64,000 nt of DNA, from assembly GCA_965243595.1 (NCBI GenBank), contig OZ251569.1:1025177-1089176 (forward strand), given 5' to 3'. The translations under genes were made by a program, and so were the position numbers. The DNA is from Thermodesulfobacteriota bacterium. GTDB taxonomy: Bacteria; Desulfobacterota_D; UBA1144; Nemesobacterales; Nemesobacteraceae. Shown piece by piece: positions 1 to 56,406 of the stretch (position 1 is its first letter; the number at the start of each line of letters is the position of its first letter). Under the pieces are notes generated by a model, which had not been told where the DNA came from, searched no databases, and saw only the letters and a list, made by a program, of their open reading frames with translations.

Positions 1-14
1 TCACCGCGCTCACG

Positions 15-8638: not shown

Positions 8639-8730
8639 TGCGTCAACGATTATAACATGTTTGCTGAAGAAAAGCGAAGAAATCGCCGAGTGACGGCTGT
8701 GCGGACGATTTCGGCATAGCGGAGTCCCGG

Positions 8731-9018: not shown

Positions 9019-9195
9019 TCTCGACGCCACGCGGCCGGCGACGGAACCGAAGATACCGGGATTGACCTGCCGGAAACGCTCCCGTTTCCGGTTATAACGG
9101 CTTTTGTTTGATTTCAGACGGTTGCGGTCCGTTCCGTCAAGACCGCGTGAAGTCAAAGGGCGCGGCGGCTTCACGCGAAGAATGCTCGTATTGCT

Positions 9196-9627: not shown

Positions 9628-9719
9628 TGCGTCAACGATTATAACATGTTTGCTGAAGAAAAGCGAAGAAATCGCCGAGTGACGGCTGTGCGGACGATTT
9701 CGGCATAGCGGAGTCCCGG

Positions 9720-20069: not shown

Positions 20070-20428
20070 GCTTTTTCGGGAGAGTGAGCGAGCATCCGCT
20101 TCAGGTGTTCAGAAATTTCCGTCCGCTGGCGGCTTTCGCCTTCCGCCAGTGTTTCACTCTTTACCACAGCTCCGCTTCTCCCTCCCGCTTTACCGCTCAA
20201 AAGGACCGCGCAAAGAACCTTTTCAAGTCCCTGCAAAGAGCTTGCGTGCATGCCTTGAGTTGTTACTGCGCCCTGTCGGATACACGTGCGAATTGACCGA
20301 TATGTTCTGTATCTTGCCAATGGAGGACTCTCGTCTCCATGGTTTGACCCGTCAAAAACTGTTCGATAGTTTTTATATGTTGCGGTTTCAAGTATGAAGC
20401 GCCATCCCGTAGCCAGCGATGGAAAAGA

Positions 20429-37021: not shown

Positions 37022-38452
37022 ATGAAAGTCGCGATTGTCGGAGCTGGCGTTTCGGGTCTGTCCTGCGCCCACTACATGAGGAAGTTTTTCAGAGATTCCT
37101 CCACTCCTCTCGAGCTGGTTCTTTTCGAATCCTCTGGGCGTGCGGGCGGAGTCTTCGATACCGTGAAGACGGGGGGCACGGTTCTCGAGCTGGGTCCCGA
37201 TTCCTTCATAACGTCCAAGCCCTGGGCCCTGGATCTCGCGAGGGATCTCGGTCTCGGGAATTCGCTTCTGGGGGTGGGAGACGGCCCCAGGACCACCTTC
37301 GTCTACAAGGGAGGGCGTCTCCGGCGGCTTCCCGAAGGTTTTTTCATCATGTCCCCTTCGAAACTTTTTCCCTTTCTGCGTTCCGGGCTTTTCAGCGTAC
37401 GGGCGAAACTCAGGGTTCTTCTCGAGCCCCTCGTCCCGCGCGGAGGCGGAGAAGACGAAAGCGTTTCCGGCTTTGTGACCAGAAGATTCGGAAAGGAAAT
37501 GTTCGACACCGTCGCCCAGCCCGTTCTGGGCGGAATCTACATGACCGACGCGGAAAAACTGAGCCTTGGCGCCACCATGCCGCAGTTTCTGGAGATGGAG
37601 AGGGACAAAGGAAGCGTTCTTACGAGTCTTCTTCGCAATCCTCCCACGTCCCGCGGGGAAAGCGGGGCCAGGTACGGACTTTTCCTGACGCCCGCCGGAG
37701 GAATGTCGGTCATTACGGAAAAACTTCTCGAGAGCGCCGCGTTCGCCAAGTGCCACTTCGGAACCCGGGTGTCGGCGGTCGCGGAATCGGAGGGAAAATG
37801 GCTGGTGGTCTCCGGCACGGGAACGCGGGAGGAGTTCGACGCCGTCGCGCTGGCCGTCCCGGCCGCCGCGGCCTCTTCGCTCCTCTCGGATGTCGCCCCG
37901 GACATCTCGCAGGGACTCTCCCGCATCGAATACTCCTCTTCGGTCGTCGCCAGTCTCGTTTTCGACGAGAGGGATTTTTCGGGTCTTCCCGACGGTTTCG
38001 GAATCATAGTTCCCTCGACCGAGGGAATGAACCTCGCGGCCTGTTCGCTCTACAGCAACAAGTTCCCCGCCAAGTGCGAAAGCGGCAAGGTGGTGGTGAG
38101 GGGTTTTCTCGGGGGCGAGGGCAATTCCGGCGTCGCGGACTGGAGCGACGAGAAAGTAGAGACCGTTCTGGGAGAGGAACTTCGCGGGATTTTCGGCGAC
38201 ACCAGGGCGGAGAAAATTATCGTGAAGAGGTATCCGGAATCGATGCCGCTTTTTCGCGTCGGCCACGCCCGCATCATGAGGGACATCATGGACGGATTCT
38301 CTCGGCGCGGGGGACTTTCTCTCTGCGGGGCGGCATGCCTCGGGGTCGGGATACCGGACTGCGTGCGGTCGGGAGAGTTGTCCGCCCGAAAGATTCACGC
38401 GGATTTGACCGGAGGCGGCGAGAGCGTCCATCCTTCGGGAAAATCATCATGA
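37022..38452 (+). CDS. hemY: FAD-dependent protoporphyrinogen/coproporphyrinogen oxidase (HemY/CgoX family)
   Basis: KVAIVGAGVSGLSCAHYM dinucleotide-binding motif; 476 aa. Confidence 0.85.
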   Translation: MKVAIVGAGVSGLSCAHYMRKFFRDSSTPLELVLFESSGRAGGVFDTVKTGGTVLELGPDSFITSKPWALDLARDLGLGNSLLGVGDGPRTTFVYKGGRLRRLPEGFFIMSPSKLFPFLRSGLFSVRAKLRVLLEPLVPRGGGEDESVSGFVTRRFGKEMFDTVAQPVLGGIYMTDAEKLSLGATMPQFLEMERDKGSVLTSLLRNPPTSRGESGARYGLFLTPAGGMSVITEKLLESAAFAKCHFGTRVSAVAESEGKWLVVSGTGTREEFDAVALAVPAAAASSLLSDVAPDISQGLSRIEYSSSVVASLVFDERDFSGLPDGFGIIVPSTEGMNLAACSLYSNKFPAKCESGKVVVRGFLGGEGNSGVADWSDEKVETVLGEELRGIFGDTRAEKIIVKRYPESMPLFRVGHARIMRDIMDGFSRRGGLSLCGAACLGVGIPDCVRSGELSARKIHADLTGGGESVHPSGKSS

Positions 38453-38700
38453 TTCTTAATCTTTGGCCGCTTTCGGAAGAGAGGCAACCGGTTTCCGCCG
38501 GGGAAATGAGTTTTTTCCTCCTTCGGACGCTCCGGCGGAGAGGGTCGGAACTACAGGGCCGGAAGTCGTTTGAACATGGGTATGGCGATTGAATGCTGGC
38601 GACGGGAACTTCGGGACAGCACCCCGAACACGAACTCCCGCTAGAGAACTCACCCGGCAGGATTTGAGCCGGTCCGTCCGGTTACGCTTTCGGCATTGCA
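38440..38700 (+). pseudogene. Remnant of a cassette 3' end (tail-coding region plus the conserved downstream sequence) directly after hemY
   Basis: 38450-38500 (CTTTGGCCGCTTTCGGAAGAGAGGCAACCGGTTTCCGCCGG) aligns to the FFGRFRKRGRRFPP-coding ends of the cassettes. 38500-38660 aligns to the conserved post-cassette sequence, including the degenerate autotransporter 3'-end remnant. Confidence 0.5.
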
Positions 38701-38788
38701 GAAACGGGTTTTTCTGCATCTTCGCGGGATGTTACACGCGGAATTTCTCTCGACGCCAAGGTTAAAATACGTTTGCGATTCCGCAAAT

Positions 38789-38798
38789 GGGGGGGGGG
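38789..38798. repeat. Poly-G homopolymer tract, 10 nt, 19 bp upstream of the cassette A -35
   Basis: GCAAATGGGGGGGGGGTAAACTCC. The same arrangement recurs at 41333-41343 (11 G), 43970-43979 (10 G) and 46566-46575 (10 G). Confidence 0.9.
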
Positions 38799-38816
38799 TA
38801 AACTCCTAATAAATTC

Positions 38817-38846
38817 TTGACAGCGCGCCTGGAAACATATTATAGT
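38817..38846 (+). promoter_or_regulatory. Sigma70-type promoter of cassette A (TTGACA-N18-TATAGT)
   Basis: Perfect -35 TTGACA at 38817-38822 and -10 TATAGT at 38841-38846. An SD GGGAGA and an ATG at 38882 follow. Confidence 0.6.
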
Positions 38847-38881
38847 TTTCCTGCATTGCAGACAGTGACGGGAGAATAGAA

Positions 38882-39205
38882 ATGGAATACGAAGCGAAGT
38901 CATACGCGGAGAGACCGTTCTCGGAGATTGAGAAGCGAACTGCGGTTTCGGTTCGGAAAGACTTTTGCGAAGCGAGGCGCTCGGGTTCTTTATCGTTTTC
39001 CGGAGCCGTCGGGTCGGAGTCGTTCGTTCCGAACGCCCTCCGTTTCGAAGAAGTTGCGGACATGAGAGTCGAAGCGCGGACTTCCCGCGTAATACCCCCC
39101 CCCCCTGTTCCAATCTGGAACACGCTTAGGATTTCCCGGGTTTCCTGTTCGGGCTTTTCTTCTCGTTCTGGCCTTGGCCGCGGGAGTTTCCTCTTTCCCG
39201 TCTGA
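38882..39205 (+). other. Cassette A 5' leader ORF (conserved N-terminal extension MEYEAKS...VIPPPP), out of frame with the gene body at the poly-C tract
   Basis: Strong SD plus ATG. About 90% identical to the in-frame N-termini of cassettes C and D. After the 11-C tract it reads in the wrong frame and stops at 39205. Confidence 0.5.
39095..39105. repeat. Poly-C tract, 11 nt, in the cassette A 5' coding region (encodes PPP; frame-determining)
   Basis: AATACCCCCCCCCCCTGTTCC. The paralogs carry 9 C (41640-41648), 13 C (44237-44249) and 10 C (46872-46881). The 10-C and 13-C copies are in frame; the 11-C and 9-C copies are not. Confidence 0.9.
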
Positions 39206-40931
39206 TGTTTCCGCGCAGAACCGAAATTTGTTTCAGACTCCAGGTGCTGGGCAGCAGATAAGCGGTGTTTCCAATAGCGCCATAATCCTAGCCATATTGG
39301 GTTCGAAGAGCATCACCCTCGGGGCTACGCATAATTTTACCTGGCAAGTGTATGAAATTTACGCCTGTGCCAAAACCGAGACGCCGACAAGCAACGCCGT
39401 CTCCTACGTGTCGTCGGGATGTACATCACTTGGTTCACCTACTACCGTAACCAATGCCAATGTGAGCTTCACCGTGACCCAAACCATGATTGACAACGGA
39501 GGGGTTGTCATCGTGGCGATACGAAAAACTGTTAACGAACTTCGTTTCGGCCAGTGGGTTCCGCTTACCCCGCCCATAACTGTGAGTCAGAGCGGGACGC
39601 TCTCGCTTGTGGAGGGCGGAAGCGGGACGTACACGGTGAGGCTCAATGTGCAGCCCACGGCCGCCGTCACCATACGCGTGGCGAGCAACAACGCGGGCGT
39701 TGCGGTCAAGGCGGGTTCGAATCCGGCCGGGGCAAGCCAGGACCTTACGTTCGAGGCGAACGACGATAACGGCAAGATATGGAGCACGGCGCAGACGGTG
39801 ACGGTCGTGGCGCTTTCCGACGACAATCTGCTCGACGAGAGGGCGATTCTGTCGCACGATGCGTCAAGCGGCAGCGCGCCGGAGTACTCCGGCACCACAG
39901 GCAGGGTGAACGTGAACGTTACGGACGACGACTATCCCGGTCTCACGATAACCGGGGCGACGGCGTCGGAGAGCGAGGAGACGCTTGATTTCACGGTGAG
40001 GCTGAGCATGGCGAGCAGTCGCCGCGTGACGGTGCCCTGGACGGTGATTGCGGCCGGTCCGGACGCGGGGACGGCGACTCCCGGGACGGCTGGCAGCGGG
40101 GACTACGACCATTCGAGCGCGAGGAGCGGGACGCTTGTTTTCTACGAGGGGTCGCCTCTGACGCGGGTCATATCGGTGCCGATAAACGACGATTCGGTGT
40201 TGGAAGGAGACGAGACGGTGAAGGTGTCTCTGGGAACTCCTGTTCCCGGCGACGTGCGCGTTTCGGGTTCGGGGGTAGCCACGGGCACCATAGTGGACGA
40301 CGACGAGAGGACGGTGGTCGGCGCGACGTCGGGAGAGTTTTCGCAGGGAGGCACTATGGTGACGGTGGATTCGAGGCTTCCCGAGAACACTGGTCTCGAG
40401 GTGGTACTGCCTACGGAGCTTGAGAGCGGAGGGGAGGCGATAGAGGAGTTGGTCGTCACCCTGCGGGAGGCTGACGAGGACGTGGAGATAGACCCTGATC
40501 TTTTCGGATACACTGGAGACGCCGCGGACCACGTGCTGGTGGACGTGGACGTTTCCCCTGCGCCGGATGCCGCCGTGAGGATATGTCTTCCGGTGACGGA
40601 GGAGCTTCGCACGGCGGCGGGAGAGCGGAGGAGGCTTTACCTGATAAGGTTCTCCGGGGGGACATGGGAGGAGCTCTCTTCGACTGTAAGGAGAGAAAAG
40701 GTGTGCGCGGACACGAGCGGATTTTCTCCATTCGCGGTGGTGTACGAGCTGATGAACATGGGCTCGGGCAATGGAAGTTCTGGAAGCGGTGGTGGCGGGT
40801 GCGCGATTTCGGGTGAGAATCGGTTTGCCTCGCCGGGGGCATGGTTTTCCTCGCCGGTGCTGCCGGCTGTGCTACTGATGCCTCTTCTGTTTTTCGGACG
40901 CTTTCGGAAGAAAGGCAGACAGTTTCTGTAG
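39174..40931 (+). CDS. Surface protein cassette A (body): signal peptide, variable N-terminal domain, two Calx-beta domains, conserved two-Cys module, C-terminal sorting tail. Apparently phase-OFF relative to its ATG leader.
   Basis: The frame continues upstream to the poly-C tract and encodes a signal peptide (RAFLLVLALAAGVSSFPSDVSA|Q). Calx-beta DETVKVSLGT... and LDFTVRLS.... The tail is SGGGGCAISGENRFASPGAW-[hydrophobic helix]-FFGRFRKKGRQFL. Confidence 0.75.
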   Translation: MAAGVSSFPSDVSAQNRNLFQTPGAGQQISGVSNSAIILAILGSKSITLGATHNFTWQVYEIYACAKTETPTSNAVSYVSSGCTSLGSPTTVTNANVSFTVTQTMIDNGGVVIVAIRKTVNELRFGQWVPLTPPITVSQSGTLSLVEGGSGTYTVRLNVQPTAAVTIRVASNNAGVAVKAGSNPAGASQDLTFEANDDNGKIWSTAQTVTVVALSDDNLLDERAILSHDASSGSAPEYSGTTGRVNVNVTDDDYPGLTITGATASESEETLDFTVRLSMASSRRVTVPWTVIAAGPDAGTATPGTAGSGDYDHSSARSGTLVFYEGSPLTRVISVPINDDSVLEGDETVKVSLGTPVPGDVRVSGSGVATGTIVDDDERTVVGATSGEFSQGGTMVTVDSRLPENTGLEVVLPTELESGGEAIEELVVTLREADEDVEIDPDLFGYTGDAADHVLVDVDVSPAPDAAVRICLPVTEELRTAAGERRRLYLIRFSGGTWEELSSTVRREKVCADTSGFSPFAVVYELMNMGSGNGSSGSGGGGCAISGENRFASPGAWFSSPVLPAVLLMPLLFFGRFRKKGRQFL

Positions 40932-41361
40932 CGTAGGTGGAAAGGAGTCTTTTCCCCCTTTGACTGACGCTCCGGCGGAGACAGTTGGAACTACAGGGGC
41001 AGGGAGCCGTTTGAGCGTGGACGGGATGTTCGATGTGTCTCTCAAAGCCCGGCGTGAGGTCAGCGCGGGCGAACCCGAGCACTAACTCATCCCTTCAGGG
41101 CGGGCTCAACTGGCAGAATTTGAGCTGGCTGCAACCCATTATTCTCTCTGGCTTGCGCGACGCCTGTGTATCGGGCGGGAATGTTCCTTGACCGTCGGGT
41201 CTTTGAGATTTCCGCTCTGTCCGCGTCGGCTCTCGACATTGCGAAAACGGGGTCTTCATGTATCTTCGGGTGACGTGGCGCACGGAGGTTCTCTCGACGT
41301 CAAGATTAAGATACTCCTGCAATTTCGCAAATGGGGGGGGGGGTAAACTCCTAATAAATTC

Positions 41362-41391
41362 TTGACAGCGCACCTGGAAACATATTATAGT
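41362..41391 (+). promoter_or_regulatory. Sigma70-type promoter of cassette B (TTGACA-N18-TATAGT)
   Basis: Same architecture as cassette A. Leader ATG at 41427. Confidence 0.6.
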
Positions 41392-41426
41392 TTTCCTATA
41401 TTGCAGACAACGACGGGAGGATAGAA

Positions 41427-41663
41427 ATGGAATACGAAGCGAAGTCATCGGCGGAGAAACCGTCCTCGGAGCTTGAGAAGCAAATTGCGGTTTCGGTTCG
41501 GAAAGACTTTTGCGAAGCGAGGCGCTCGGGCTCTTTGTCGTTCTCCGGTGCCGGCGGGTCGGAGTCGTCCGGTCCGAACGCCCTCCACGGCGAAGAAGTT
41601 GCGGACGTGAAAGTCGAAGCGCAGAGCGCCCGCGTAATACCCCCCCCCTCTATTCCAATCTAG
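41427..41663 (+). other. Cassette B leader ORF, frameshifted at the 9-C tract
   Basis: MEYEAKSSAEKPSSELEKQIAVSVRKDFCEARRSGS... ends shortly after the poly-C tract. The signal-peptide segment (41694-41760) is in a third frame relative to the body. Confidence 0.5.
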
Positions 41664-41853
41664 AACACGATTAGGGTTTCCCGGGTTTCCGGCATGGGCT
41701 TTTATTCTCGTCCTGGTCCTGGCCGCGGGAGTTTCCTCTTTCCCGTCCGACGCTTCCGCGCAGAACAGAAATGTTTACTTATTACCGGGGGTCTTCAGTT
41801 GGAGTCCTCTATCCGTTCCCGGTGCCCTTCGAGCCGAGACGGGCCGACAGAGG

Positions 41854-43566
41854 GTGGCGATAGAGTATGCTTCAGAGGGTGGGGGTCAATACTATACCTA
41901 TGGCACACATGGCCTTTACGCCTGTTCCTGGAGCGGGACGCCGACAACCGACGGCCAGACTCCGAACTGCGAGTCTCTTGGAAATGCAAACAACAACAGG
42001 TGGAGGCGGCTTCAGCCCAAGGACTTTGAAGTGACCCAGACCATGGTCGACAACGGAGGATTCGTTCTCTTGATGAGGGAGCATGGCCCCCAATTTTATC
42101 GAAGGGTCATTGCCTTCTGGGTTCCGCTGTACGGTCTGGACGTGAGTCCTGGCGGGGGGCTTTCGCTTGAGGAGGGAGAAAGCGGGACGTACATGGTGAA
42201 GCTCAGAAGCTGGCCCGCGCGCAACTACCATACCGCTTCGGGTCCTGAGCTGACCAAGACGGACGAAGCCGTCACGATACGCGTGGTGAGCAACAACCCG
42301 GGCGTCGTGGTCAAGGAGGGAGAAGAACTTAGGTTCGAGGCGAACGACGATGACGGCAAGATATGGAGCACGGCGCAGACGGTGACGGTGGAGTCCGTTT
42401 CCGACGACAATTCGCTCGACGAGAGGGCGGCTCTGTCGTTCGAGGTGTCAAGCGACAGCCCTTCGGAGTATTCCTGGATTGCCGGCGACGACAGGTTGAA
42501 TGTGAACGCGAACGTTATGGACGACGACTATCCCGGTCTCACGATAACCGGGGCGACGGCGTCGGAGAGCGATGAGACGCTCGATTTCACGGTGAAGCTG
42601 AGCACGACCAGCAGTCGCCGTGTGACGGTGGACTGGACGGTGATTACTGACGGAGCGGACGCGGGGACGGCGACGCCCGGGACGGCTGACAGCGGGGATT
42701 ACGACTACTGGAGCACGGTGGGAGGGACGCTTGTCTTTTCCGAGGGGTCGCCTCTGACGCGTGTCATATCGGTGCCGATAAACGACGATTCGGTGTTGGA
42801 AGGAGACGAGACGGTGAAGGTGTCTTTGGGAACTCCGAGTCCGGGCGACGTGCGCGTTTCGGGTTCTGGGGTGGCCACGGGCACCATAGTGGACGACGAC
42901 GAGAGGACTGTGGTCGGAGCGGCGTCGGGAGAGTTTTCGCAGGGAGACACCAGGGTGACTGTGGATTCGAGGCTTCCGGAGGACACGGGGCTCGAGGTGG
43001 TTCTGCCTGCGGAGCTTGAGCGGGGCGGGGAGGCGATAGGAGGTCTGGTCGTCACCCTGCGGGAGGCGGACGCGGACGTGGAGATAGACGAAGGTCTTTT
43101 CGGATACACTGGAGACGACGCGGACCACGTGCTGGTGGACGTGGACGTTTCCCCGGTGCCGGACGCCGCCGTGAGGATATGCCTTCCGGTGACGGAGGGA
43201 CTTCGCATGGCGGCGGGAGAGCGGAGGCTTTACCTGATAAGGTTCTCCGGAGGGTCGTGGGAGAGGCTTTCCTCGACCGTGGAAGGGGAGATGGTGTGCG
43301 CGGACTCAGGCGGATTTTCTCCTTTCGCCGTGGTGTACGAGCGGATGAACTCGGTCTCGGGAAGCGACGGCCGGACTCCGTCTTCCCCGAATGAGATGAA
43401 CTCGGGCCCGGGGAGCGGTGGCGGCGGATGCGCGATTTCGGGTGAGAATCGGTTCGCCTCGCCTGCGGCATGGTCTTCCTCGCCGGCGCTCTTGGCAATG
43501 CTGCTGATACCTCTTTTGTTTTTCGGACGCTTTCGGAAGAGGAGGCAGACAGCTTCTGTAGCGTAG
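41854..43566 (+). CDS. Surface protein cassette B (body), possibly a phase-OFF or decaying copy
   Basis: Same domain order and the same tail ...GSGGGGCAISGENRFASPAAW...LLFFGRFRKRRQTASVA. The leader, signal peptide and body are in three different frames, which means at least two frameshifts. Confidence 0.65.
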   Translation: MAIEYASEGGGQYYTYGTHGLYACSWSGTPTTDGQTPNCESLGNANNNRWRRLQPKDFEVTQTMVDNGGFVLLMREHGPQFYRRVIAFWVPLYGLDVSPGGGLSLEEGESGTYMVKLRSWPARNYHTASGPELTKTDEAVTIRVVSNNPGVVVKEGEELRFEANDDDGKIWSTAQTVTVESVSDDNSLDERAALSFEVSSDSPSEYSWIAGDDRLNVNANVMDDDYPGLTITGATASESDETLDFTVKLSTTSSRRVTVDWTVITDGADAGTATPGTADSGDYDYWSTVGGTLVFSEGSPLTRVISVPINDDSVLEGDETVKVSLGTPSPGDVRVSGSGVATGTIVDDDERTVVGAASGEFSQGDTRVTVDSRLPEDTGLEVVLPAELERGGEAIGGLVVTLREADADVEIDEGLFGYTGDDADHVLVDVDVSPVPDAAVRICLPVTEGLRMAAGERRLYLIRFSGGSWERLSSTVEGEMVCADSGGFSPFAVVYERMNSVSGSDGRTPSSPNEMNSGPGSGGGGCAISGENRFASPAAWSSSPALLAMLLIPLLFFGRFRKRRQTASVA

Positions 43567-43997
43567 GTGGAAAGGAGTTTTTTCCTCCTTTGACTGACAC
43601 TCCGGCGGGGACGGTCGGTCGGAACTACAGGGGCAGGGAGCCGTTTGAGCATGGACGGGATGTTCAACGTGTCTCTCAAAGCCCGGCGCACTGAGGTCAG
43701 CACGGGCGACCCGAGCGCTAATTCATCCCTCCAAGGTGGGCTCAACTCAACTGGCAGGATTTGAGCTGGCTGCGACCCATTCTCTCTGACTTGCGCAACC
43801 CCTGCTTATAGGGCGGGAATGTTCCTTGACCGTCGGGTCTTTGAGACTTATGCTCTGTCCGCGTCGGCTCTCGACATTGCGAAAACGGGGTCTTCTGTAT
43901 CTTCGGGTGATGTGGCGCGCGGAGTTTCTCTCGACGTCAAGATTAAAATACTCCCGCAATTCCGCAAATGGGGGGGGGGTAAACTCCTAATAAATTC

Positions 43998-44027
43998 TTG
44001 ACAGCGCACCTGGAAACATATTATAGT
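43998..44027 (+). promoter_or_regulatory. Sigma70-type promoter of cassette C (TTGACA-N18-TATAGT)
   Basis: -35 at 43998-44003, -10 at 44022-44027, SD GGGAGGA, ATG at 44063. Confidence 0.6.
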
Positions 44028-44062
44028 TTTCCTATATTGCAGACAACGACGGGAGGATAGAA

Positions 44063-46078
44063 ATGGAATACGGAGCGAAGTCATCGGCGGAGAAACCGTC
44101 CTCGGAGCTTGAGAAGCGAGGCTCTCGGGCTCTTTATCGTTTTCCAGAGGTCGGGTCGGAGTCGTCCGGTCCGAACGCCCTCCGCGGCGAAGAAGTTTCG
44201 GACATGAAAGTCGAAGCGCTGACCGCCTGCGTAATACCCCCCCCCCCCCTGTTTCAACTTAGAACATGTGCTGGGACTCTCCGCGTACTGACGTCGGCTT
44301 TTCTTTTTGTTCTGACCCTTGCCGTGGGAGTCTTGTTTCTTTCGCTGCAGTCTTTTGCCCAAGAGGTGCAGACATGGAAAAGACCCGGCGACGGCCGGGC
44401 CAATAACTGGTCAACACTAACAACAAAGCTCTTACCTGTGACAGGAACACAGACCGTTAGGTTGCGAAACAACACTTTTGGTCAGTATAGGGCTCACGCA
44501 ATTTACGCGTGCGCATGGGTCAGTTTGGAGCCACCACACGCCACCAACGCTCCATCGTCCGGCTGTACGAAAATTTATAATGCCATAACTGCAGGCTCAA
44601 ACACCTTTGAAGTCAATCATTCCGTCTCCATAACCCAAGCCATGATCAACAACGGGAAAGTCGTCTTGGTGGCACGATATGAGTATTCGCCGATGGTAAA
44701 TATGTGGGCGGTGGGAATTCCATTGGTGCCTAGGGCCATAATAGTGAGTCAGTCGACGGCGATTGGTCTTACGGAGGGGAGCACTTCTACCTACACTGTG
44801 AAGCTTGAGGCGCAGCCTGCGGACGATGTCACGATACGCGTGGCGAGCAACAACGCGGGCGTCGCGGTCAAGGCGGGTTCGAATCCGGCCGGGGCGAGAC
44901 AGGACATTACGTTCAACTCCACCACATGGAATACGCCGCAGACGGTGACGGTGGAGGCGCTTTCCGACGACAATCTGCTCGATGAGAGGGCGATTCTGTC
45001 GCACGAGGTGTTAAGCGGCAGCGCACCGGAGTACTCCGGTGCCGCTGGCAGGGTAAACGTAAACGTTATGGATGACGACTATCCCGGTCTCATGATAACC
45101 GGCGCATCGGCGTCGGAGAGCGATGAGACGCTTGATTTCACGGTGAAGCTGAGTGCGGCGAGCAGTCGCCGCGTGGCAGTGGACTGGACGGTGATTGCGG
45201 CCGGTCCGGACGCGGGGACGGCGACGCCCGGGACGGCGGGCAGCGGGGACTACGACCATTCGAGCGCGAGGAGCGGGACGCTTGTTTTCTACGAAGGGTC
45301 GCCGCTGACGCGAACCATACCGGTGCCGATAAACGACGATTCGGTGTTGGAAGGAGACGAGACGGTGAAGGTGTCTTTGGGAACTCCCAGTCCCGGGGAC
45401 GTGCGCGTTTCGGGTTCTGGGGTGGCCACGGGCACCATAGTGGACGACGACGAGAGGACGGTGGTTGGCGTGACGTCGGGAGAGTTTTCGCAGGGAGACA
45501 CCAAGGTGACGGTGGATTCCAGGCTTCCCGAGGACACGGGGCTTGAGGTGGTTCTGCCTACGGAGCTTGAGAGCGGCGGGGAGGCGATAGAGGAGCTCAC
45601 GGTGACTCTGGGGCCTTCGGACGTGGAGATAGACGCTGACCTTTTCGGATACACGGGAGACGCCGCGGACCACATGCTGGTGGACGTGGATGTTTCCCCC
45701 GTGCCGGACGCCGCCGTGAGGATATGCCTTCCGGTGACGGAGGGGCTTCGCATGGAGGCGGGAGAGCGGAGGCTTTACCTGATAAGATTCTCCGGGGGGA
45801 CATGGGAGGAGCTTTCCTCGACCGTGGAGGGGGAGATGGTGTGCGCGGACACGAGCGGATTTTCTCCATTCGCGGTGGTGTACGAGCGGATGACGAACAT
45901 GGGCTCGGGCAGTGGAAGCTCTGGAAGCGGTGGCGACGGCGGATGTGCTATTTCGGGTGAGAATCGGTTCGCGTCGCCTACGGCATGGTTTTCCTCGCCG
46001 ATGTTCTTGGTACTGCTGCCTCTTTTGTTTTTCGGCCGCTTTCGGAAGAGATGCAGACGGTTTCCGCACGGGGAATGA
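44063..46078 (+). CDS. Surface protein cassette C, intact and in frame through the 13-C tract (phase-ON)
   Basis: 671 aa. Leader, PPPP, signal peptide (LTSAFLFVLTLAVGVLFLSLQSFA|QE), variable domain, Calx-beta domains, conserved module, and tail GGDGGCAISGENRFASPTAW...LLFFGRFRKRCRRFPHGE. Confidence 0.8.
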   Translation: MEYGAKSSAEKPSSELEKRGSRALYRFPEVGSESSGPNALRGEEVSDMKVEALTACVIPPPPLFQLRTCAGTLRVLTSAFLFVLTLAVGVLFLSLQSFAQEVQTWKRPGDGRANNWSTLTTKLLPVTGTQTVRLRNNTFGQYRAHAIYACAWVSLEPPHATNAPSSGCTKIYNAITAGSNTFEVNHSVSITQAMINNGKVVLVARYEYSPMVNMWAVGIPLVPRAIIVSQSTAIGLTEGSTSTYTVKLEAQPADDVTIRVASNNAGVAVKAGSNPAGARQDITFNSTTWNTPQTVTVEALSDDNLLDERAILSHEVLSGSAPEYSGAAGRVNVNVMDDDYPGLMITGASASESDETLDFTVKLSAASSRRVAVDWTVIAAGPDAGTATPGTAGSGDYDHSSARSGTLVFYEGSPLTRTIPVPINDDSVLEGDETVKVSLGTPSPGDVRVSGSGVATGTIVDDDERTVVGVTSGEFSQGDTKVTVDSRLPEDTGLEVVLPTELESGGEAIEELTVTLGPSDVEIDADLFGYTGDAADHMLVDVDVSPVPDAAVRICLPVTEGLRMEAGERRLYLIRFSGGTWEELSSTVEGEMVCADTSGFSPFAVVYERMTNMGSGSGSSGSGGDGGCAISGENRFASPTAWFSSPMFLVLLPLLFFGRFRKRCRRFPHGE

Positions 46079-46593
46079 GCTTTTTTCTCTATAGGATTAG
46101 ACTTTCCGGCCGAAAACAACGAGATGCAACGGCAATGCCCGTTGCTGCCAAGAGCAACCAGATTCGGCGTTTTCCGTATGGCGCCGTAGGAGTGAAACTT
46201 TGCGGAGAGGTCGTTCCCTTGTTTTTTTCCGCCGATATGCAACTGACCGAAAAACACGAAAACGGCATTTTGCGGTGTTTCGCGAAAAATGAAACCGCCG
46301 AACTCGGGAAGGAATGCACGGAATCGGCACCCATGTCGTCGGAAAACGGCCCGGGGCGGGGCGACGCACAAAGTAAGTCGTAGGGGATTCCGTTCGGAGA
46401 AAAAGGGCGTTTGACAGCGCGGCCTGAAAGGGCGGGCCAACTGGTATAGGAGTAGCGGTGTCGCTGGCCGGTTCTCTCGCGCAACGCCTGCGTAATCTTC
46501 GCGGGACGTTGCGCGCGGAATTTCTCTCGACATCAAGATTAAAGTACGCTTGCGATTTCGCAAACGGGGGGGGGGTAAATTCCTAACAAATTC

Positions 46594-46623
46594 TTGACAG
46601 CGCGCCTGGAAACGTATTATAAT
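46594..46623 (+). promoter_or_regulatory. Sigma70-type promoter of cassette D (perfect TTGACA-N18-TATAAT)
   Basis: -35 at 46594-46599, -10 at 46618-46623, ATG at 46659. Confidence 0.65.
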
Positions 46624-46658
46624 CTTCCCATCTTGAAGACAGTGACGGGAGGGTAAAA

Positions 46659-48797
46659 ATGGAATACGGAACGAAGTCATCGGCGGAGAAACCGTCCTCG
46701 GAGCTTGAGAAGCGAATTGCGGTTTCGGTTCGGAAAGATTTTTGCGAAGCGAGTCTCCCGGGCTCTTTATCGTTTTCCGGCGCCGGCGGGTCGGAGTTGT
46801 CCGGTCCGAACGCCCTTCGCGGCGAGGAAGTCGCGGACATGAAAGTCGAAGCGCGGACCGCCCGCGTAATACCCCCCCCCCTCTATTTTAATCTAGAACA
46901 TGCGCGGGCTTTCCCGGGGTTCCTGGCGCGGGTTTTCCTTCTCGTTGTGGTCCTGGCCGCGGGAGTTTCGTATTTCCCGTCCGATGCTTCCGCACAGGAC
47001 AGAGGTGATTATTTACAGGCTCGAGGCGGGGCGGGATTTTACAACAATGTTTTAGGAACTTGGGGGACCTATCGAGCCCGTCCGGGCAGACAGGCCTTCA
47101 GGATGGCATGCGAGGTCCTCGAAGGTTATCAGTTATACACCTTTTACGCCTGTCCCTGGAACGCAAAACCTACAAGTAAAGCCGCCGCCGACAACGTGTC
47201 GGGATGCTCATTTATTGCTTCGGGAATTCGCGGACGAGACTGGTCGCGAGACTTTGACCTGACCCAGGCCATGGTCGACAACGGAGGATTCTATGCAGTG
47301 ATGTATAGACCGTTCTCATTTTTGACCGACATTGCCTTCTGGGTTCCGTTGCATGGTCTGGATGTGAGTCCGAGCGGGGGGCTTTCGCTTGTGGAGGGAG
47401 GAAGCGGGACGTACGAGGTGAAACTCATGAGTTGGCCCTTGCGCTGGAGATGGTCTCCGCATTATGATACTCAGCTGACCAAGACGGACGAGGCCGTCAC
47501 GATACGCGTGGCGAGCAACAACCCGAGCGTCGTGGTCAAGGAGGGAGGGGAACTTAGGTTCGAGGCGAACGACGATAACGACAGGATATGGAGCACGGCG
47601 CAGACGGTGAGGGTGGAGGCTCTTTCCGACGACAACCTGCTTGACGAGAGGGCGACTCTGTCGTTCGAGGTGTCAAGCGACAGCCTTTCGGAGTATTCCT
47701 GGATTGCCGGCGACGACAGGTGGAATGTGAAAGCGAACGTTATGGACGACGACTATCCCGGTCTCGCGATAACCGGGGCGACGGCGTCGGAGAGCGATGA
47801 GGCTCTCGATTTCACGGTGAAGCTGAGCACGACCAGCAGTCGCCGGGTGACGGTGGACTGGACGGTGATTGCGGAGGGAGCGGACGCGGGGACGGCGACG
47901 CCCGGGACGGCTGACAGCGGGGATTACGACTACTGGAGCACGGTGGGAGGGACGCTTGTCTTTTCCGAGGGGTCGCCTCTGACGCGTGTCATATCGGTGC
48001 CGATAAACGACGATTCGGTGTTGGAAGGAGACGAGACGGTGAAGGTGTCTTTGGGAACTCCCAGTCCTGGCGACGTGCGCGTTTCGGGTTCCGGGGTGGC
48101 CACGGGCACCATAGTGGACGACGACGAGAGGACGGTGGTAGGCGCGGCGTCGGGAGAGTTTTCGCAGGGAGAGACCAGGGTGACGGTGGATTCGAGGCTT
48201 CCCGAGGACACGGGGCTCGAGGTGGTTCTGCCTACGGAGCTTGAGCGTGGCGGGGAAGCGATAGGGGGTCTGGTCGTCACCCTGCGGGAGGCTGACGCGG
48301 ACGTGGAGATAGACGATGACCTTTTCGGATACACGGGAGACGACGCGGACCACGTGCTGGTGGATGTGGACGTTTCCCCGGTGCCGGATGCGGCCGTGAG
48401 GATATGCCTTCCGGTGACGGAGGAGCTTCGCATGGCGGCGGGAGAGCGGAGGCTTTACCTGATAAGGTTCTCCGGCGGGACGTGGGAGAGGCTTTCCTCG
48501 ACCGTGGAAGGGGAGATGGTGTGCGCGTCCACGAGCGGATTTTCTCCTTTCGCGGTGGTGTACGAGCGGATGAGCTCGGGAAGCGACGGCCGGACTCCGT
48601 CTTCCCCGAATGAGATGAACTCGGGTACGGGAAGCGGTGGTGGCGGATGCGCGATTTCGGGTGAGAATCGGTTCTCATCGCCGGTGCTGCTGGCGATGCT
48701 GCTGGGGATGTTGCTTATGCCTCTTTTGTTCTTCGGACGCTTTCGAAAGAGAGGTAGACGGTTTCCGCCGGAGAAGCAGGTTGTTCCTCCTCGATAA
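46659..48797 (+). CDS. Surface protein cassette D, intact and in frame through the 10-C tract (phase-ON)
   Basis: 712 aa with the same architecture. Tail GSGGGGCAISGENRFSSPVLLAMLLGMLLMPLLFFGRFRKRGRRFPPEKQVVPPR. Confidence 0.8.
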   Translation: MEYGTKSSAEKPSSELEKRIAVSVRKDFCEASLPGSLSFSGAGGSELSGPNALRGEEVADMKVEARTARVIPPPLYFNLEHARAFPGFLARVFLLVVVLAAGVSYFPSDASAQDRGDYLQARGGAGFYNNVLGTWGTYRARPGRQAFRMACEVLEGYQLYTFYACPWNAKPTSKAAADNVSGCSFIASGIRGRDWSRDFDLTQAMVDNGGFYAVMYRPFSFLTDIAFWVPLHGLDVSPSGGLSLVEGGSGTYEVKLMSWPLRWRWSPHYDTQLTKTDEAVTIRVASNNPSVVVKEGGELRFEANDDNDRIWSTAQTVRVEALSDDNLLDERATLSFEVSSDSLSEYSWIAGDDRWNVKANVMDDDYPGLAITGATASESDEALDFTVKLSTTSSRRVTVDWTVIAEGADAGTATPGTADSGDYDYWSTVGGTLVFSEGSPLTRVISVPINDDSVLEGDETVKVSLGTPSPGDVRVSGSGVATGTIVDDDERTVVGAASGEFSQGETRVTVDSRLPEDTGLEVVLPTELERGGEAIGGLVVTLREADADVEIDDDLFGYTGDDADHVLVDVDVSPVPDAAVRICLPVTEELRMAAGERRLYLIRFSGGTWERLSSTVEGEMVCASTSGFSPFAVVYERMSSGSDGRTPSSPNEMNSGTGSGGGGCAISGENRFSSPVLLAMLLGMLLMPLLFFGRFRKRGRRFPPEKQVVPPR

Positions 48798-48966
48798 GGT
48801 CTTCTCTCTGCGGTAAATCACGTTTTCGGACCTCCGAAGCCGGGAATTTGCGCGGGTGCCCCTGGATAACGGCTTTGCCTAATGCTTTGCGGAAAAAACC
48901 TGACCTTCACGGTTCCGGGATTCAAAAAATTTTTTCCTGTGGCATAATTGTAAGCTGAACGTTACT

Positions 48967-49038
48967 GCCGATGTAGCTCAGCGGTAGAGCAGCTCACTCG
49001 TAATGAGCAGGTCAGGGGTTCAAATCCCCTCGTCGGCT
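48967..49038 (+). tRNA. tRNA-Thr (anticodon CGU)
   Basis: Manual fold: acceptor GCCGATG/CGTCGGC, D arm GCTC-AGCGGTA-GAGC, anticodon stem GCTCA/TGAGC with loop CTCGTAA, T arm AGGGG-TTCAAAT-CCCCT. No encoded CCA. Confidence 0.85.
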
Positions 49039-49049
49039 GTAATGTTTCC

Positions 49050-50291
49050 TTACCGGAAGATTTTCGAGAAGTATTCCCTGAATTTTCCGCTCGTCAGGCT
49101 GGTGTGTCTCGAGAGGTTTCTCAGGTTCCTGGCGTTTTCCAGGTCCTCGGGAGTTATCTTGATCATGTATTTCTGCGAAACCTCGTAGGCCTCGGTGTTC
49201 GTGTCGACGTACCTTACCTTCATGCTGTTCGTTTTCCTGTCGACGAGTCTCGAGAAAGGAGTCGCCTGCATTTTTCCCCTCTTCAGGTACACGAGCGCCC
49301 CGTCGCCTCCGCCGAGCAGGTACTTGACCGCGCAGTAGCCGAGCTTGCGCGTGTAGTCCACGTCGAACGGAATTGGGTCGGCCGAGCGAAGCTCGTAGCC
49401 TATCCTCTTGTGCACGATTTCCGCGCCCACGCCTTTTTCCGAGAGCTTCTCGCCGAGGGTCTCCTTGAGAAGGTGTCCGAAGTTCGTGTCCAGATACCTT
49501 ATTCTTCCCATGTTGTCCCTGTCCATGATTCCGAGATCCCCGGGGTTTATCTTGTCGAGCATCCCCTCGGCCATTACGGCCACTCCGTATTCCCTTCCCA
49601 TGCTCATTCTCTTGATTACCGAGCCCTCGAGAATCGCTATGACCTTCGCGAGAGACACCTTCTTCTCCCGAAACTCCTCGGGTATCACCGTGATGGTGGC
49701 TCCGGAGGACTGCCCGATTCCCAGGGCCAGATGCCCCGTTCTCCTGCCCATGGTTATGACCACGAACCACCTGCCGGTCGTCTTCGCCTCTTCCATTATG
49801 TGGTTTATTATCTTCGCCCCCACGTCCCTGGCGGTCTCGAAGCCGAAGGTGGGTATGTAGTCGGGAAGGGCTATGTTGTTGTCTATGGTTTTCGGGACGT
49901 GCGCTATCTTCACTTTTCCCCCGAAATGCTCGTGAAGGGTTCTGGCCAGGAACATCGTTCCGTCTCCCCCTATGGTTATCAGTCCCCCTATGCCGAGTTT
50001 CCCGATCGAGGAAACGGTGTTGGCGAAGCTCTCCTCGTCCGCGAGGGGGCTTTTTCTGGATATTCCGATAACGGAACCGCCGTCGGTGTGAATCCTGGAG
50101 GTGTTCTGAATGTCGAGGTCGACCGTTTTCGACGTGTCTCCGGCGGAAATCCACTTGAAGCCGTCGAGAATGCCCACCACCTTTCTGCCCCTGTTTCTGG
50201 CCTCTATGGTGGCCGAGCTTATGACCCCGTTTATTCCCGGCGCCGGTCCTCCGGCCGCTATGATTCCGATCTTGTCGGCTTTTTCAGCCAT
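49050..50291 (-). CDS. 6-phosphofructokinase; its length suggests the PPi-dependent type
   Basis: GIIAAGGPAPGINGVI and TIGGDGT motifs; 413 aa from the MAEKADK ATG. Confidence 0.85.
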   Translation of the reverse strand: MAEKADKIGIIAAGGPAPGINGVISSATIEARNRGRKVVGILDGFKWISAGDTSKTVDLDIQNTSRIHTDGGSVIGISRKSPLADEESFANTVSSIGKLGIGGLITIGGDGTMFLARTLHEHFGGKVKIAHVPKTIDNNIALPDYIPTFGFETARDVGAKIINHIMEEAKTTGRWFVVITMGRRTGHLALGIGQSSGATITVIPEEFREKKVSLAKVIAILEGSVIKRMSMGREYGVAVMAEGMLDKINPGDLGIMDRDNMGRIRYLDTNFGHLLKETLGEKLSEKGVGAEIVHKRIGYELRSADPIPFDVDYTRKLGYCAVKYLLGGGDGALVYLKRGKMQATPFSRLVDRKTNSMKVRYVDTNTEAYEVSQKYMIKITPEDLENARNLRNLSRHTSLTSGKFREYFSKIFR

Positions 50292-50982
50292 TCTGCCTCT
50301 CCGCCCTGTATTTTCTGCGGCGGTAGGCTTCGGTGCGCACGTAGCTGCCCGCGAAAGCGAGACCGCCCGCCAGCCCCCCGATATGAGCCCAGAACGCCAC
50401 TCCTCCCGTGCCGCCAATATAACCGATTCCGCCGAGGAACTGAAAGACGAACCAGACCATTACGAACAGGTATGCCTTTATGCGGACGAACTGCAAGACG
50501 ATCAGGACCACGAGAAGCGTGAGTATGTTCGACCTCGGGAAAAAGAGCATGTACGCCCCCAGCACTCCGGAGATCGCCCCGCTCGCGCCTATCGTCGGGA
50601 TTTCGGAGTGAATGTTGAGAAGCGTGTGCAGAAAAGCCGTGGCGAGCCCGCAGGTCAGGTAGAAAAGCAGGTATCCGAAATGGCCCAGCCTGTCCTCGAC
50701 GCCCCTTCCGAATATGTGCAGAAAGATCATGTTTCCGCCCGCGTGCAGCCAGCCTCCGTGAACGAACATCGAGGCGAAAAACACCGACGTTCTCTCAAGC
50801 GTCCCGTAGGCGTCCGGGGGAAACACCCTGCGGGGGACTAGACCGTACTTGCCGTGGAAGACCTCGAGCGCCGCTCCGTCGAGAGAAAGCGCGTAGGCGA
50901 ACGCTAGCAGGTTCGCGGCGATGAGCGCGTAGTTCACGTAAGGGGCGGTGGCGGTTTTTATTGTGCTTCTAATCGGTATCAT
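50284..50982 (-). CDS. Rhomboid-family intramembrane serine protease (candidate rhombosortase-like processing enzyme)
   Basis: About six transmembrane helices. Catalytic Ser in GASGAISGVLGAY and catalytic His in FWAHIGGLAGG. Conserved FVHGGWLHAGGNMIFL loop-1/TM2 region. The ORF maximum extends to 51090; the start is set at MIPIRS. Confidence 0.75.
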   Translation of the reverse strand: MIPIRSTIKTATAPYVNYALIAANLLAFAYALSLDGAALEVFHGKYGLVPRRVFPPDAYGTLERTSVFFASMFVHGGWLHAGGNMIFLHIFGRGVEDRLGHFGYLLFYLTCGLATAFLHTLLNIHSEIPTIGASGAISGVLGAYMLFFPRSNILTLLVVLIVLQFVRIKAYLFVMVWFVFQFLGGIGYIGGTGGVAFWAHIGGLAGGLAFAGSYVRTEAYRRRKYRAERQNG

Positions 50983-51540
50983 TATCCCGCCAATTATACT
51001 TGAGCCGCGGAAGCGGAAGTACCCGCCCGGGAGTCGAAGAGAGTTGAAAAAGCCCTTGCAGGACGACCTGACCAGGATAAGAACGGACATGAGGAGAAGC
51101 TTCGCGAAAGTTTCTCTCCTCGCGGTGAACGCCGGGCTGTTTGCCGAACCCTGCGCCGAAACGCTCGAAATCCCGGGGAATCTTTCCCCCGAAGAACTTC
51201 TCCGCGAGCTTTCCCGGCTGGGCGTCGGGGTCGTCTTCTACGGCCGGGAGGCTTCCGCCCGCGGGTTTCTTCGCGGGCTTCGGGGAGCGGTAGAGGAAAA
51301 CCGCCATACGGTTCTCGACGAGCCGCGCCCCGGGCGGGACGTCCGGGGAGATGGACCCTGCGCGCTGGTCGGCTGCGAGAAGTCCGACGTCGGTCTTCTC
51401 CGTCCCGGGATCTTTTCCGTCGCTTCCCGAAGCGCGGACCTGTCCCTGAAAATGGTTTCCGACTACGTGTCCAATTTCGACGGGGAGTCCGTCTTCGTGG
51501 AAGTGGGAAACCTGGTGGTCGACTCCAGGAGGGAAGCGCG

Positions 51541-55527: not shown

Positions 55528-56391
55528 TCACAAACCCCCGCGGCCGAGAACCGAAAAAAGCGGAAACCCGTCCCACAGCAGGTACGCCAGGGCCGAGACC
55601 GAGAGGAACGGGCCGTACGGAATGGCCCGGCGGACGCTCTCCCCGCGCAGCGCTATTATAGCGAGACCGGCGGCGGTTCCCAGCAGGGAGCTTGCGAATA
55701 CGACCATTACGACTCCCTCGATCCCGAGAAACGCCCCCAGCATGGAAACGAGCTTCACGTCTCCCATTCCGAGACCTTCGGTCTTTCTGACCTCCCTGTA
55801 GACCCGCGCTATGAGAAAGAAGACTCCTCCTCCGAGAAGGGCGCCCGCTAGGGAATCGAGAATTCCGGCGTTCGGAACCGCGTGGAGGAAGCTTTGCGCC
55901 GCTGGCGAGAAAAGCGCCTCGCCGAGAGCCCCCCAGTCGGTCCTCGCGGCCCCGAGAGCGAGTCCCGCGGCGGTTCCCGGAATCGTCACGGCGTCGGGTA
56001 TCACCATGTGCCTCGAGTCTACGAGGGTCACCACCACCAGGGACGCCGAGAACGCGAGGTAGAAGGCGAACTCGACCGAGGGGCCGAATTTTCCGTAGAG
56101 AGCGAGCGCGAGGACGCCGCAGAGAATTTCCGCGAGCGGGTGCTCCGCCGGTATCCCGGCCCCGCAGTGGGCGCACTTGCCCCGGAGGAGAACGAAGCTT
56201 GCGACCGGAATGTTGTGAAAGGCCCGCAGGGGCGTTTCGCAGGACTCGCAGCGCGACGGCGGGAAGACGACGGAGACCCCCGCGGGGATTCTCCTGGCGC
56301 ACACGCAGGCGAAGCTTCCGAGCGCCGTTCCCAGGGCGAAAAGAAGCGCCCAGACGGCGACGCTTTCGGGGTGGGCGGAAAGGCTCTCCAA
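55528..56391 (-). CDS. pilD: Prepilin peptidase (A24 family, PilD-like)
   Basis: N-terminal tetracysteine CESCETP...CAHCGAGIP, catalytic Asp regions (VDSRHMVIPD... and GMGDVKL), and eight transmembrane helices. Confidence 0.85.
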   Translation of the reverse strand: MESLSAHPESVAVWALLFALGTALGSFACVCARRIPAGVSVVFPPSRCESCETPLRAFHNIPVASFVLLRGKCAHCGAGIPAEHPLAEILCGVLALALYGKFGPSVEFAFYLAFSASLVVVTLVDSRHMVIPDAVTIPGTAAGLALGAARTDWGALGEALFSPAAQSFLHAVPNAGILDSLAGALLGGGVFFLIARVYREVRKTEGLGMGDVKLVSMLGAFLGIEGVVMVVFASSLLGTAAGLAIIALRGESVRRAIPYGPFLSVSALAYLLWDGFPLFSVLGRGGL

Positions 56392-56406
56392 GACGGCCCC
56401 GGCCCG

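Follow-up and report, generated by a model that had tools for sequence, protein, structure and literature searches.

A tandem array of homopolymer-gated, Cys-tailed surface-protein genes, putatively phase-variable, in an uncultured bacterium of the Thermodesulfobacteriota

Homopolymer contingency loci and Cys-type C-terminal sorting signals are both already known kinds of system. Among the homopolymer-switched surface genes of pathogens, Neisseria pilC has a G tract in its signal-peptide coding region, Neisseria porA combines a promoter poly-G with a coding tract, the tpr genes of Treponema pallidum carry a poly-G upstream of the promoter, and in Bordetella fim a C tract lies between the activator site and the −10 hexamer. 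Here we describe a locus that appears to join the two kinds, an array of four paralogous genes (cassettes 1 to 4) in a 64-kb stretch of the chromosome of an uncultured Thermodesulfobacteriota bacterium (contig OZ251569.1; the whole stretch is referred to as the window). We judge it likely, though by no means certain, that the array belongs to a phase-variable surface-protein family displayed by way of a lineage-specific Cys-type signal, and that the protease acting on this signal is probably a myxosortase homologue encoded elsewhere.

Tripartite C-terminal signals with an invariant Cys have been assigned to CPBP/Rce1-like myxosortases by Haft's analysis and by experiments on MrtX. Cleavage by MrtX is Cys-dependent, and lipidation and surface export via the type II secretion system have been predicted. 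According to Haft, the helices of MYXO-CTERM signals contain neither Pro nor charged residues. JDVT-CTERM signals have a nearly invariant DP nine residues after the Cys, occur on about one client per genome, and have an adjacent CPBP gene (MrtJ) at 16 of 17 loci. Cys-type signals have so far been described in Myxococcota, Bradymonadales, some Pseudomonadota, Synergistetes and Thermococcales.

The interval between hemY and tRNA-Thr contains four paralogous genes and one 18-codon 3' remnant. A first-pass annotation of the window had listed these elements, together with a repeated unit of poly-G, promoter, Shine-Dalgarno (SD) sequence, ATG leader, poly-C, signal peptide, hypervariable domain, conserved module and tail; each element was found in its place and the unit was recovered in all four cassettes. 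The order in each cassette is a run of 10–11 G, 18 nucleotides (nt) of A/T-rich sequence, TTGACA-N18-TATA(G/A)T, a GGGAG(G) SD, an ATG, about 70 leader codons, a run of 9–13 C and the signal-peptide core, with an ASA-Q cleavage motif ending the signal peptide in all four. No homopolymer of at least 9 nt occurs in the whole window apart from these eight tracts, which lie at two homologous positions in each cassette. Furthermore, the four best sigma-70 matches of the 13-kb region (11–12 of 12 positions) are the four cassette promoters, again at homologous positions.

All features of the array lie on the forward (+) strand. Cassette 1 begins with a conserved upstream region (38690–38788) that terminates in the dyad TTGCGAttCCGCAA, immediately before the poly-G (10 G, 38789–38798, 18 nt upstream of the −35 hexamer); homologous regions also precede cassettes 2–4 and a gene of an Illumina-assembled relative (L013). 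The promoter TTGACA-N18-TATAGT follows at 38817–38846, and the leader runs from the SD-preceded ATG at 38882 for 71 codons (38882–39094) as far as the poly-C (11 C, 39095–39105). The main frame (39093–40931) encodes the signal peptide, variable domain, Calx-beta, conserved module and tail (40794–40931). Cassette 2 has its poly-G (11 G) at 41333–41343, promoter TTGACA-N18-TATAGT at 41362–41391, leader at 41427–41639 (ATG 41427), poly-C (9 C) at 41640–41648 and main frame at 41638–43566 (tail 43423–43566). In cassette 3 the poly-G (10 G, 43970–43979) and promoter (43998–44027) precede a gene at 44063–46078 with its poly-C (13 C) at 44237–44249 and its tail at 45938–46078. Cassette 4 comprises a poly-G (10 G, 46566–46575), a TTGACA-N18-TATAAT promoter that matches at 12 of 12 positions (46594–46623), and a gene at 46659–48797 with its poly-C (10 C) at 46872–46881 and its tail at 48642–48797. 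The remnant of a former cassette (38453–38585) starts directly past the hemY stop codon: positions 38453–38509 translate to FLIFGRFRKRGNRFPPGK followed by a stop codon, the final 18 codons of the tail, and the conserved 3' flank behind them is the one also found behind cassettes 1 and 2.

The C tract lies 3' of both candidate starts, the SD-preceded far ATG and a nearer ATG or GTG, and 5' of the signal-peptide core, where its length sets the reading frame. The frame of the leader ATG runs through in cassettes 3 (C13, 671 amino acids (aa)) and 4 (C10, 712 aa) only. Cassettes 1 (C11) and 2 (C9) are frameshifted at the tract, with a stop after 107 and 78 codons respectively, and are thus OFF. When the tracts were resized in silico, cassette 1 was full length at C10 or C13 (682–683 aa) and cassette 2 at C8 or C11 (712–713 aa), and the loss of a single C restored both (682 and 712 aa). 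The frames beyond the tract in the two OFF cassettes are intact for 612–642 codons with no second lesion, and in neither cassette is there an internal start that could be used with the signal peptide retained.

The unit is also found beyond the source genome, itself a single contig of 2,268,554 bp. In the nearest genome of the species-representative set, the Thermodesulfobacteriota metagenome-assembled genome OZ242012.1, the same unit of G tract, promoter, leader and C tract precedes autotransporter-type relatives, with G10–14 and C9–16. Across 12 family genes (G 10–14, C 9–16), five are in frame and seven are out of frame, while the L013 gene, at G10/C13, is in frame. Of the 13 tail-type paralogues called in the source genome, about half lack their N-terminal part. 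Homologous copies therefore differ in tract length, giving a mixture of ON and OFF genes that are otherwise intact, as expected of contingency genes. This pattern is the sequence signature of slipped-strand phase variation, from which we infer switching in real time. The earlier proposal of a contingency-type array of variable, exported, surface-directed proteins is supported.

The same data could arise with no switching at all, if the tract lengths were homopolymer miscalls in a long-read assembly or if cassettes 1 and 2 were decaying pseudogenes. The single 2.27-Mb contig suggests long reads, for which runs of 9–13 nt are a classic error site. However, the tracts keep their positions in different paralogues and species and in the Illumina scaffolds L012 and L013, the OFF copies are free of a second lesion over 612–642 codons, and the mixture of ON and OFF genes occurs in two independent genomes. 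Tracts of such length are intrinsically hypermutable by slipped-strand mispairing, so that those at these positions would be hypermutable even if single lengths had been miscalled. We therefore regard the absence of switching as unlikely.

Slippage could also take place during transcription. Runs of at least nine identical bases are RNA polymerase slippage sites, the poly(A) tracts of endosymbionts being an example. RNA polymerase slipping on the C tract would give a constant, low fraction of in-frame mRNA, making the tract a leaky attenuator instead of, or beside, a DNA switch. This account is compatible with all the sequence data and does not exclude DNA-level switching, but the lengths differ at the DNA level among paralogues and orthologues, which indicates DNA slippage over evolutionary time. 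As the explanation of the tracts it seems improbable to us.

Substitutions within the 70 leader codons are distributed over the three codon positions as 9/16/12, with no third-position excess, and the peptide just past the poly-Pro is read in two different frames among paralogues. Because of this missing bias and the two-frame reading, the amino-acid sequence of the leader seems unimportant and appears unconstrained. The leader of cassette 3 keeps its frame across a 39-nt deletion.

Two further observations concern this part of the genes. The DNA from the poly-Pro to an FPGF motif is near-identical between positions 39106–39160, 41649–41700 and 46882–46930 of the window and the paralogues P0003 and P0010–P0012, and is read in two frames, giving LFQSRTRLG or YFNLEHARA, with a compensating 1-nt indel further 3'. 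In the relative L012 (9819–10020) a second type of leader (MEKK...) has an extended −10 promoter, lacks the G tract and carries an additional ATG directly 5' of its C9 tract; the short ATG is in frame with 9 C and the long leader with 8 C, so expression may be possible at two tract lengths out of three.

The G tract lies between a conserved upstream region of about 130 nt, which terminates in the dyad TTGCGAttTCGCAA, and the A/T-rich stretch before the −35 hexamer. Its distance from the −35 hexamer is 18 nt in the window and 5 nt in OZ242012.1. At positions 1560–1600 of the close relative L014, a G9 is found inside the promoter spacer itself (TTGACA-aGAGAT-G9-TAGTAT), with no coding tract, upstream of an FG-GAP tail gene (1648–3297) that is the sole tail-bearing gene in its hemY/tRNA-Thr slot. 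Homopolymer control therefore reaches tail proteins unrelated to the cassettes. The placement of the G tract in the window, OZ242012.1 and L014 makes a spacing-dependent transcriptional gate plausible. Against Rfam, the leader and intergenic regions gave no match to a known RNA other than tRNA-Thr.

The proteins themselves vary most at their N-termini. The first ~600 nt past the signal peptide show 38–58% identity between copies, while most of the remainder is 80–98% identical in a mosaic pattern that suggests gene conversion. Pfam assigned one significant Calx-beta domain (PF03160) to each cassette protein, at 29.8–35.2 bits (cutoff 27), where the first-pass annotation had given several per cassette. 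The AlphaFold model of the whole protein has a mean predicted local distance difference test score (pLDDT) of 57, and below 50 in the pre-anchor module and tail. The N-terminal 271 residues were modelled with a pLDDT of 76 as two tandem immunoglobulin (Ig)-like beta-sandwiches, ending before the Calx-beta domain. This model matches generic folds only (Ig-like, Calx-beta CBD, PapD-like and S-layer domains), and therefore does not point to any ligand. The mature protein had no relative in a PDB sequence search, and the pre-anchor module of ~150 residues had none in Pfam or the PDB search, its sole match being a weak one to the archaeal PGF-pre-PGF domain. We take the products to be stalk-like proteins of Ig-like and Calx-beta domains with a hypervariable N-terminal domain.

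The C-terminal tail was compared across 18 sequences. All share an invariant G-G-C-A-I-S, followed by GENRF[AS]SP, an occasional short insert, a hydrophobic stretch of 14–20 residues and RFRK. The GGCAIS motif precedes the helix by 10–19 residues, and in most tails the helix contains a Pro (LLMPLLFF). This agrees with the consensus and three-part layout as they were first written, and also with the statement that the tail cannot be assigned to a known family, since no curated model reached its cutoff. For GlyGly-CTERM (TIGR03501, cutoff 15.5 bits), eight cassette-family tails gave no match even at E≤10, and the unrelated tail of L005 scored 13.2 bits over the helix and basic part only. For MYXO-CTERM (TIGR03901.2, cutoff 20 bits), family tails scored at most 15.2 bits, the tail of P0064 15.1 and that of L005 19.9; the tested tails of the window's own four cassettes did not match. 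For JDVT-CTERM (NF033191, cutoff 27 bits), the window tails reached at most 16.4 bits (cassette 4) and the best paralogue, P0016, 25.8. The cassette tails matched neither Synerg-CTERM (TIGR04564, cutoff 22.5 bits), to which the P0064 tail scored 7.7 bits, nor PEP-CTERM. The invariant Cys nevertheless places the tail in the MYXO-CTERM/JDVT-CTERM class; it is best classified, from its sequence, as a lineage variant of the Cys-type sorting signal, and not as the undescribed kind of system that had first been suggested.

Kindred GGCA[IV][SA] or GCAV tails were found on proteins with no homology to the cassettes beyond the tail. In a word-index search with the tail alone, low-complexity words predominated and two matches were obtained; an exhaustive profile search then gave P0064, and this search together with six-frame scans of related loci yielded two FG-GAP proteins (P0064/L010 and L005), two HExxH metalloprotease-like proteins (L013) and a Cache-like protein (L015). 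With 13 paralogues in the source genome and these FG-GAP, metalloprotease-like and Cache-like proteins in the lineage, the signal has many clients per genome that share nothing but the tail. The two metalloprotease-like genes lie in tandem at L013 10011–13354, have a weak match to NF038122, and each end in GGCAVASDGDF, a helix and a basic tail; they are putatively further clients of the same signal. Separately, a locus picked up by the tail pattern in a scan of JGI metagenomes (L019) proved to be a spurious high-GC locus and was discarded.

Some paralogues have the same leader, passenger and pre-anchor module but end in a PF03797 autotransporter barrel. This was seen in OZ242012.1 and at positions 3–7715 (+) of the window, where a cassette-like pre-anchor module is followed by the beta-barrel in place of the Cys tail. 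The point at which tail and barrel diverge is immediately past ...GFSPFA(V/L)VY, and Pfam found no PF03797 barrel in the four cassettes. Of this giant autotransporter-type paralogue with Calx-beta repeats, the window includes the C-terminal 2571 aa; the barrel ends in QGRLNW, and the 5' end, together with any homopolymer switch, lies outside the window. Because paralogues carry the barrel at the same position, the tail is expected to lead to the surface as well. Its modular use and its exchange with the barrel thus speak for a surface-sorting signal over a simple anchor.

We propose that these features act together as follows. Each gene would be driven by its own strong promoter and gated by the poly-C between start codon and signal-peptide core, so that slipped-strand gain or loss of one C would shift the exported protein in or out of frame and the population would display changing subsets of the paralogues. 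The poly-G, placed between the dyad and the −35 hexamer, would probably alter the spacing and so act as a second gate, at the level of transcription. After Sec export, by analogy with described Cys-type signals, the tail (GGCAIS, a short Pro-containing helix and RFRK) would retain the protein in the inner membrane, be recognised at the invariant Cys, probably be modified there, and be cut by an intramembrane protease. The mature protein would then reach the cell surface, as MYXO-CTERM proteins do. The likeliest protease is a CPBP/Rce1-type myxosortase homologue encoded beyond the window, and not the neighbouring rhomboid described below. A prepilin peptidase (Peptidase A24) is encoded at 55531–56406 (−), conserved in the chromosomal backbone beside a CDC48-like AAA ATPase. 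The organism therefore makes type IV pilin-like proteins or type II secretion pseudopilins, which is relevant should type II secretion be the route of the tail proteins to the surface.

Several points weigh against this proposal. The tract lengths may be long-read assembly errors, and switching is deduced from assembled sequence. The missing codon-position bias makes it uncertain which start codon of the leader is used, although both candidates precede the C tract. The tail lies below the threshold of every curated model, and differs from MYXO-CTERM in the Pro of its helix and from JDVT-CTERM in having no DP at +9 and in being present in many copies per genome. When the window and all related loci were searched for the motifs EExxxR, FxxxH and HxxxN, and multi-pass membrane open reading frames (ORFs) were compared with Pfam, no CPBP/Rce1 protease was found in the window, which is 64 kb of a 2.27-Mb genome, or in ~370 kb of related loci. 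Finally, a tail gene lies within ~2 kb of a rhomboid gene in five genomes (L010, L014, L015, L020 and the window).

The last of these points raises the question of whether the rhomboid acts on the tail. The first-pass annotation had placed a rhomboid intramembrane serine protease 1.5 kb past the array (measured here as 1.49 kb; 50284–51090, −) and had credited the locus with its own rhombosortase-type machinery. As a dedicated, rhombosortase-like sortase, this enzyme would cut the tail within the membrane. Its catalytic motifs (GASGAISG, HxxxxHxxxN and AHIGG) are present, so that it appears catalytically intact, with M37 at 50982 probably its true start. The tail is a type-I helix with a helix-breaking Pro, which is typical of rhomboid substrates, and tail genes beside the rhomboid and phosphofructokinase (PFK) genes in the five genomes carry three different cargo families. 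In V. cholerae, moreover, VesB is also cleaved by a second rhomboid that is not a rhombosortase (PMC11389362). However, the protein scored only 11.6 bits against rhombosortase (TIGR03902, cutoff 84) and 10.3 bits against the GlpG hidden Markov model (cutoff 250), and Pfam found only the generic Rhomboid domain (93.7 bits). It has 7483 homologues at E<1e-10 in Dadabacteria, Desulfobacteria and other lineages, thousands of them at ~50% identity. The cassette tails do not match GlyGly-CTERM, and their invariant Cys is the hallmark of CPBP-processed signals.

The genomic setting also speaks against a dedicated role. The backbone recF-CDC48-pilD-amiA-obg-queG-rhomboid-PFK ... tRNA-Thr ... hemY-hemH-hemDE is conserved, and only the slot around tRNA-Thr varies. 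Between PFK and hemY there is no gene but the backbone tRNA-Thr in L022, a major facilitator superfamily (MFS) transporter in L021, an MFS gene and a Cache-like tail gene in L015, one FG-GAP tail gene in L014 and L010, and cassette-type genes in L020 and the window. The tRNA-Thr(CGT) that marks the slot (48967–49038, + in the window) is kept in all relatives examined except L017. The synteny of rhomboid, PFK, queG and Obg persists without a tail gene in L022 and L021, and in L017/L018 the rhomboid-PFK backbone is kept with no tail gene nearby. Since the backbone is conserved while the content of the slot varies and may include no tail gene, we take the rhomboid to be a housekeeping backbone gene next to a hot spot; judged from these comparisons, its closeness to the array gives no indication of a dedicated role, and the claim of a locus with its own rhombosortase-type machinery is not supported. 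That the rhomboid is the sortase for the tail is quite unlikely, though its nearness to tail genes in five genomes leaves a small probability. In its own right, the rhomboid gene lies upstream of PFK, as in its relatives, and its end appears to share 8 nt (50284–50291) with the likely PFK start (M at 50291), as in L015; this suggests a translationally coupled operon with an odd functional pairing.

If the tail were cut by no enzyme, it would be an uncleaved C-terminal anchor and the proteins would be tethered to the inner membrane, facing the periplasm. A helix followed by a basic cluster is the layout of a stop-transfer sequence, and the search of the window and ~370 kb of related loci gave no sortase. 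Against this, an invariant GGCAIS on unrelated cargo exceeds the needs of an anchor, and the hydrophobic stretch is short (14–20 residues) and interrupted by Pro. In addition, the hypervariable N-terminal domain and the apparently phase-variable expression point to surface exposure, and paralogues have an autotransporter barrel at the same position. We consider a plain anchor a doubtful account of the tail.

A bolder reading than the proposed Cys-type variant would be to treat the GGCA[IV][SA] tail as a fifth, undescribed Cys-type sorting system of Dadabacteria-like Thermodesulfobacteriota, served by the syntenic non-rhombosortase rhomboid or another unknown protease and interchangeable with type V secretion for phase-variable adhesins. 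We consider this possibility slim.

An inverton, in which the G run and C run would be the inverted repeats of a recombinase-flipped promoter segment, is hardly credible: AAATG10 and C9TGTTT do form a 14-nt imperfect inverted repeat bracketing promoter and leader, but all ten promoter segments with both tracts that were examined are in forward orientation (four in the window, five in OZ242012.1 and one in L013), some family genes have the C tract only (L012) and another tail gene has a G tract only, in the promoter spacer (L014), the window contains no recombinase gene, and the reading frame passes through the C tract.

The remainder of the window is ordinary chromosome with 60% GC, and includes priA, glnE, gatB, ddl, hemD/E, hemH, hemY, a pyrophosphate-type PFK, queG, obg, the prepilin peptidase, recF and further housekeeping genes. 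Exact-sequence look-ups with its hemY, rhomboid and cassette 4 proteins gave no entry. The rhomboid has named homologues in Candidatus Dadabacteria and Thermodesulfobacteriota. Dadabacteria form a class within Thermodesulfobacteriota, and the host is an uncultured Dadabacteria-like diderm of this phylum. An association with sponges would be a guess based on the ecology of Dadabacteria. Two other features of the window were noted. At ~7800–9830 (−) there are three tandem paralogous small ORFs composed of 33-nt (11-residue) repeats, of which eight copies were detected; these look coiled-coil-like and have only a weak match to DUF1664. At 20348–23063 (+), an AccI-type restriction endonuclease and an Eco57I-like N6-adenine methylase have a GC content at third codon positions of 0.62–0.64, lower than that of neighbouring genes, and the pair was therefore probably acquired horizontally.

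What is new here is the tail variant and the lineage in which it occurs, the exchange of tail and autotransporter barrel within one family, and a pathogen-style dual-tract switch on a large family in uncultured Thermodesulfobacteriota. Cys-type sorting signals are extended to a new phylum-level lineage, in a form that escapes every curated model. The same passenger anchored by either a barrel or a Cys tail argues that the tail leads to the surface, and provides matched constructs. Pathogen-style contingency loci, on at least 13 genes, exist in an uncultured small-genome bacterium that may be host-associated, and therefore imply strong, fluctuating selection on its surface; our literature search found no report of homopolymer contingency loci in uncultured Thermodesulfobacteriota. 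Annotation pipelines mis-call such genes as truncated or hypothetical proteins.

Among the known sorting systems, MYXO-CTERM/MrtX (TraA of Myxococcus xanthus and dozens of other clients) shares with the present tail its invariant Cys within a Gly-rich motif, followed by a helix and a basic cluster, as well as many unrelated clients per genome, these being surface proteins in a diderm host; the lineage of the source genome was, moreover, once grouped with Myxococcota in the Deltaproteobacteria. The present tail differs in having a single Cys where MYXO-CTERM frequently has GCGC, a charged spacer (GENRF) between Cys and helix, and a near-invariant Pro in the helix, contrary to Haft's description, and its lineage lies outside Myxococcota and Bradymonadales. 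JDVT-CTERM/MrtJ of Pseudomonadota is the best-scoring curated model and has in common with the tail a single Cys and a Leu-rich helix after a Pro-containing dipeptide. However, the present tail has SP at +10/+11 and no DP at +9, there are at least 13 clients in the source genome instead of about one, and the scan of the window found no CPBP gene adjoining the array, in contrast to 16 of 17 JDVT-CTERM loci. GlyGly-CTERM/rhombosortase (VesB of Vibrio cholerae) also has three parts and a Gly run ahead of its helix, and a gene of the rhomboid family lies near, but the invariant Cys is not a GlyGly-CTERM feature. The sole resemblance to Synerg-CTERM/MrtS is the invariant-like Pro in a Leu-rich helix.

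In its switch, the array resembles the homopolymer-switched surface genes of pathogens: a 5' coding tract before the signal-peptide core sets the frame, a promoter tract sets the spacing, and ON and OFF copies are mixed within a multigene family. It differs in that the host is an uncultured environmental or symbiotic member of the Thermodesulfobacteriota, that the poly-G of the window is 18 nt upstream of the −35 hexamer and not in the promoter spacer, and that switching is here predicted from sequence. In architecture, the closest counterparts are type Va autotransporter adhesins with extended signal peptides, to which the paralogues at window 3–7715 and in OZ242012.1 correspond in their long leader, signal peptide, Ig/Calx-beta passenger, pre-anchor module and PF03797 barrel. 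The four cassettes depart from this plan right past ...GFSPFAVVY, where a Gly/Ser linker and the Cys tail stand in place of the barrel with its helical linker.

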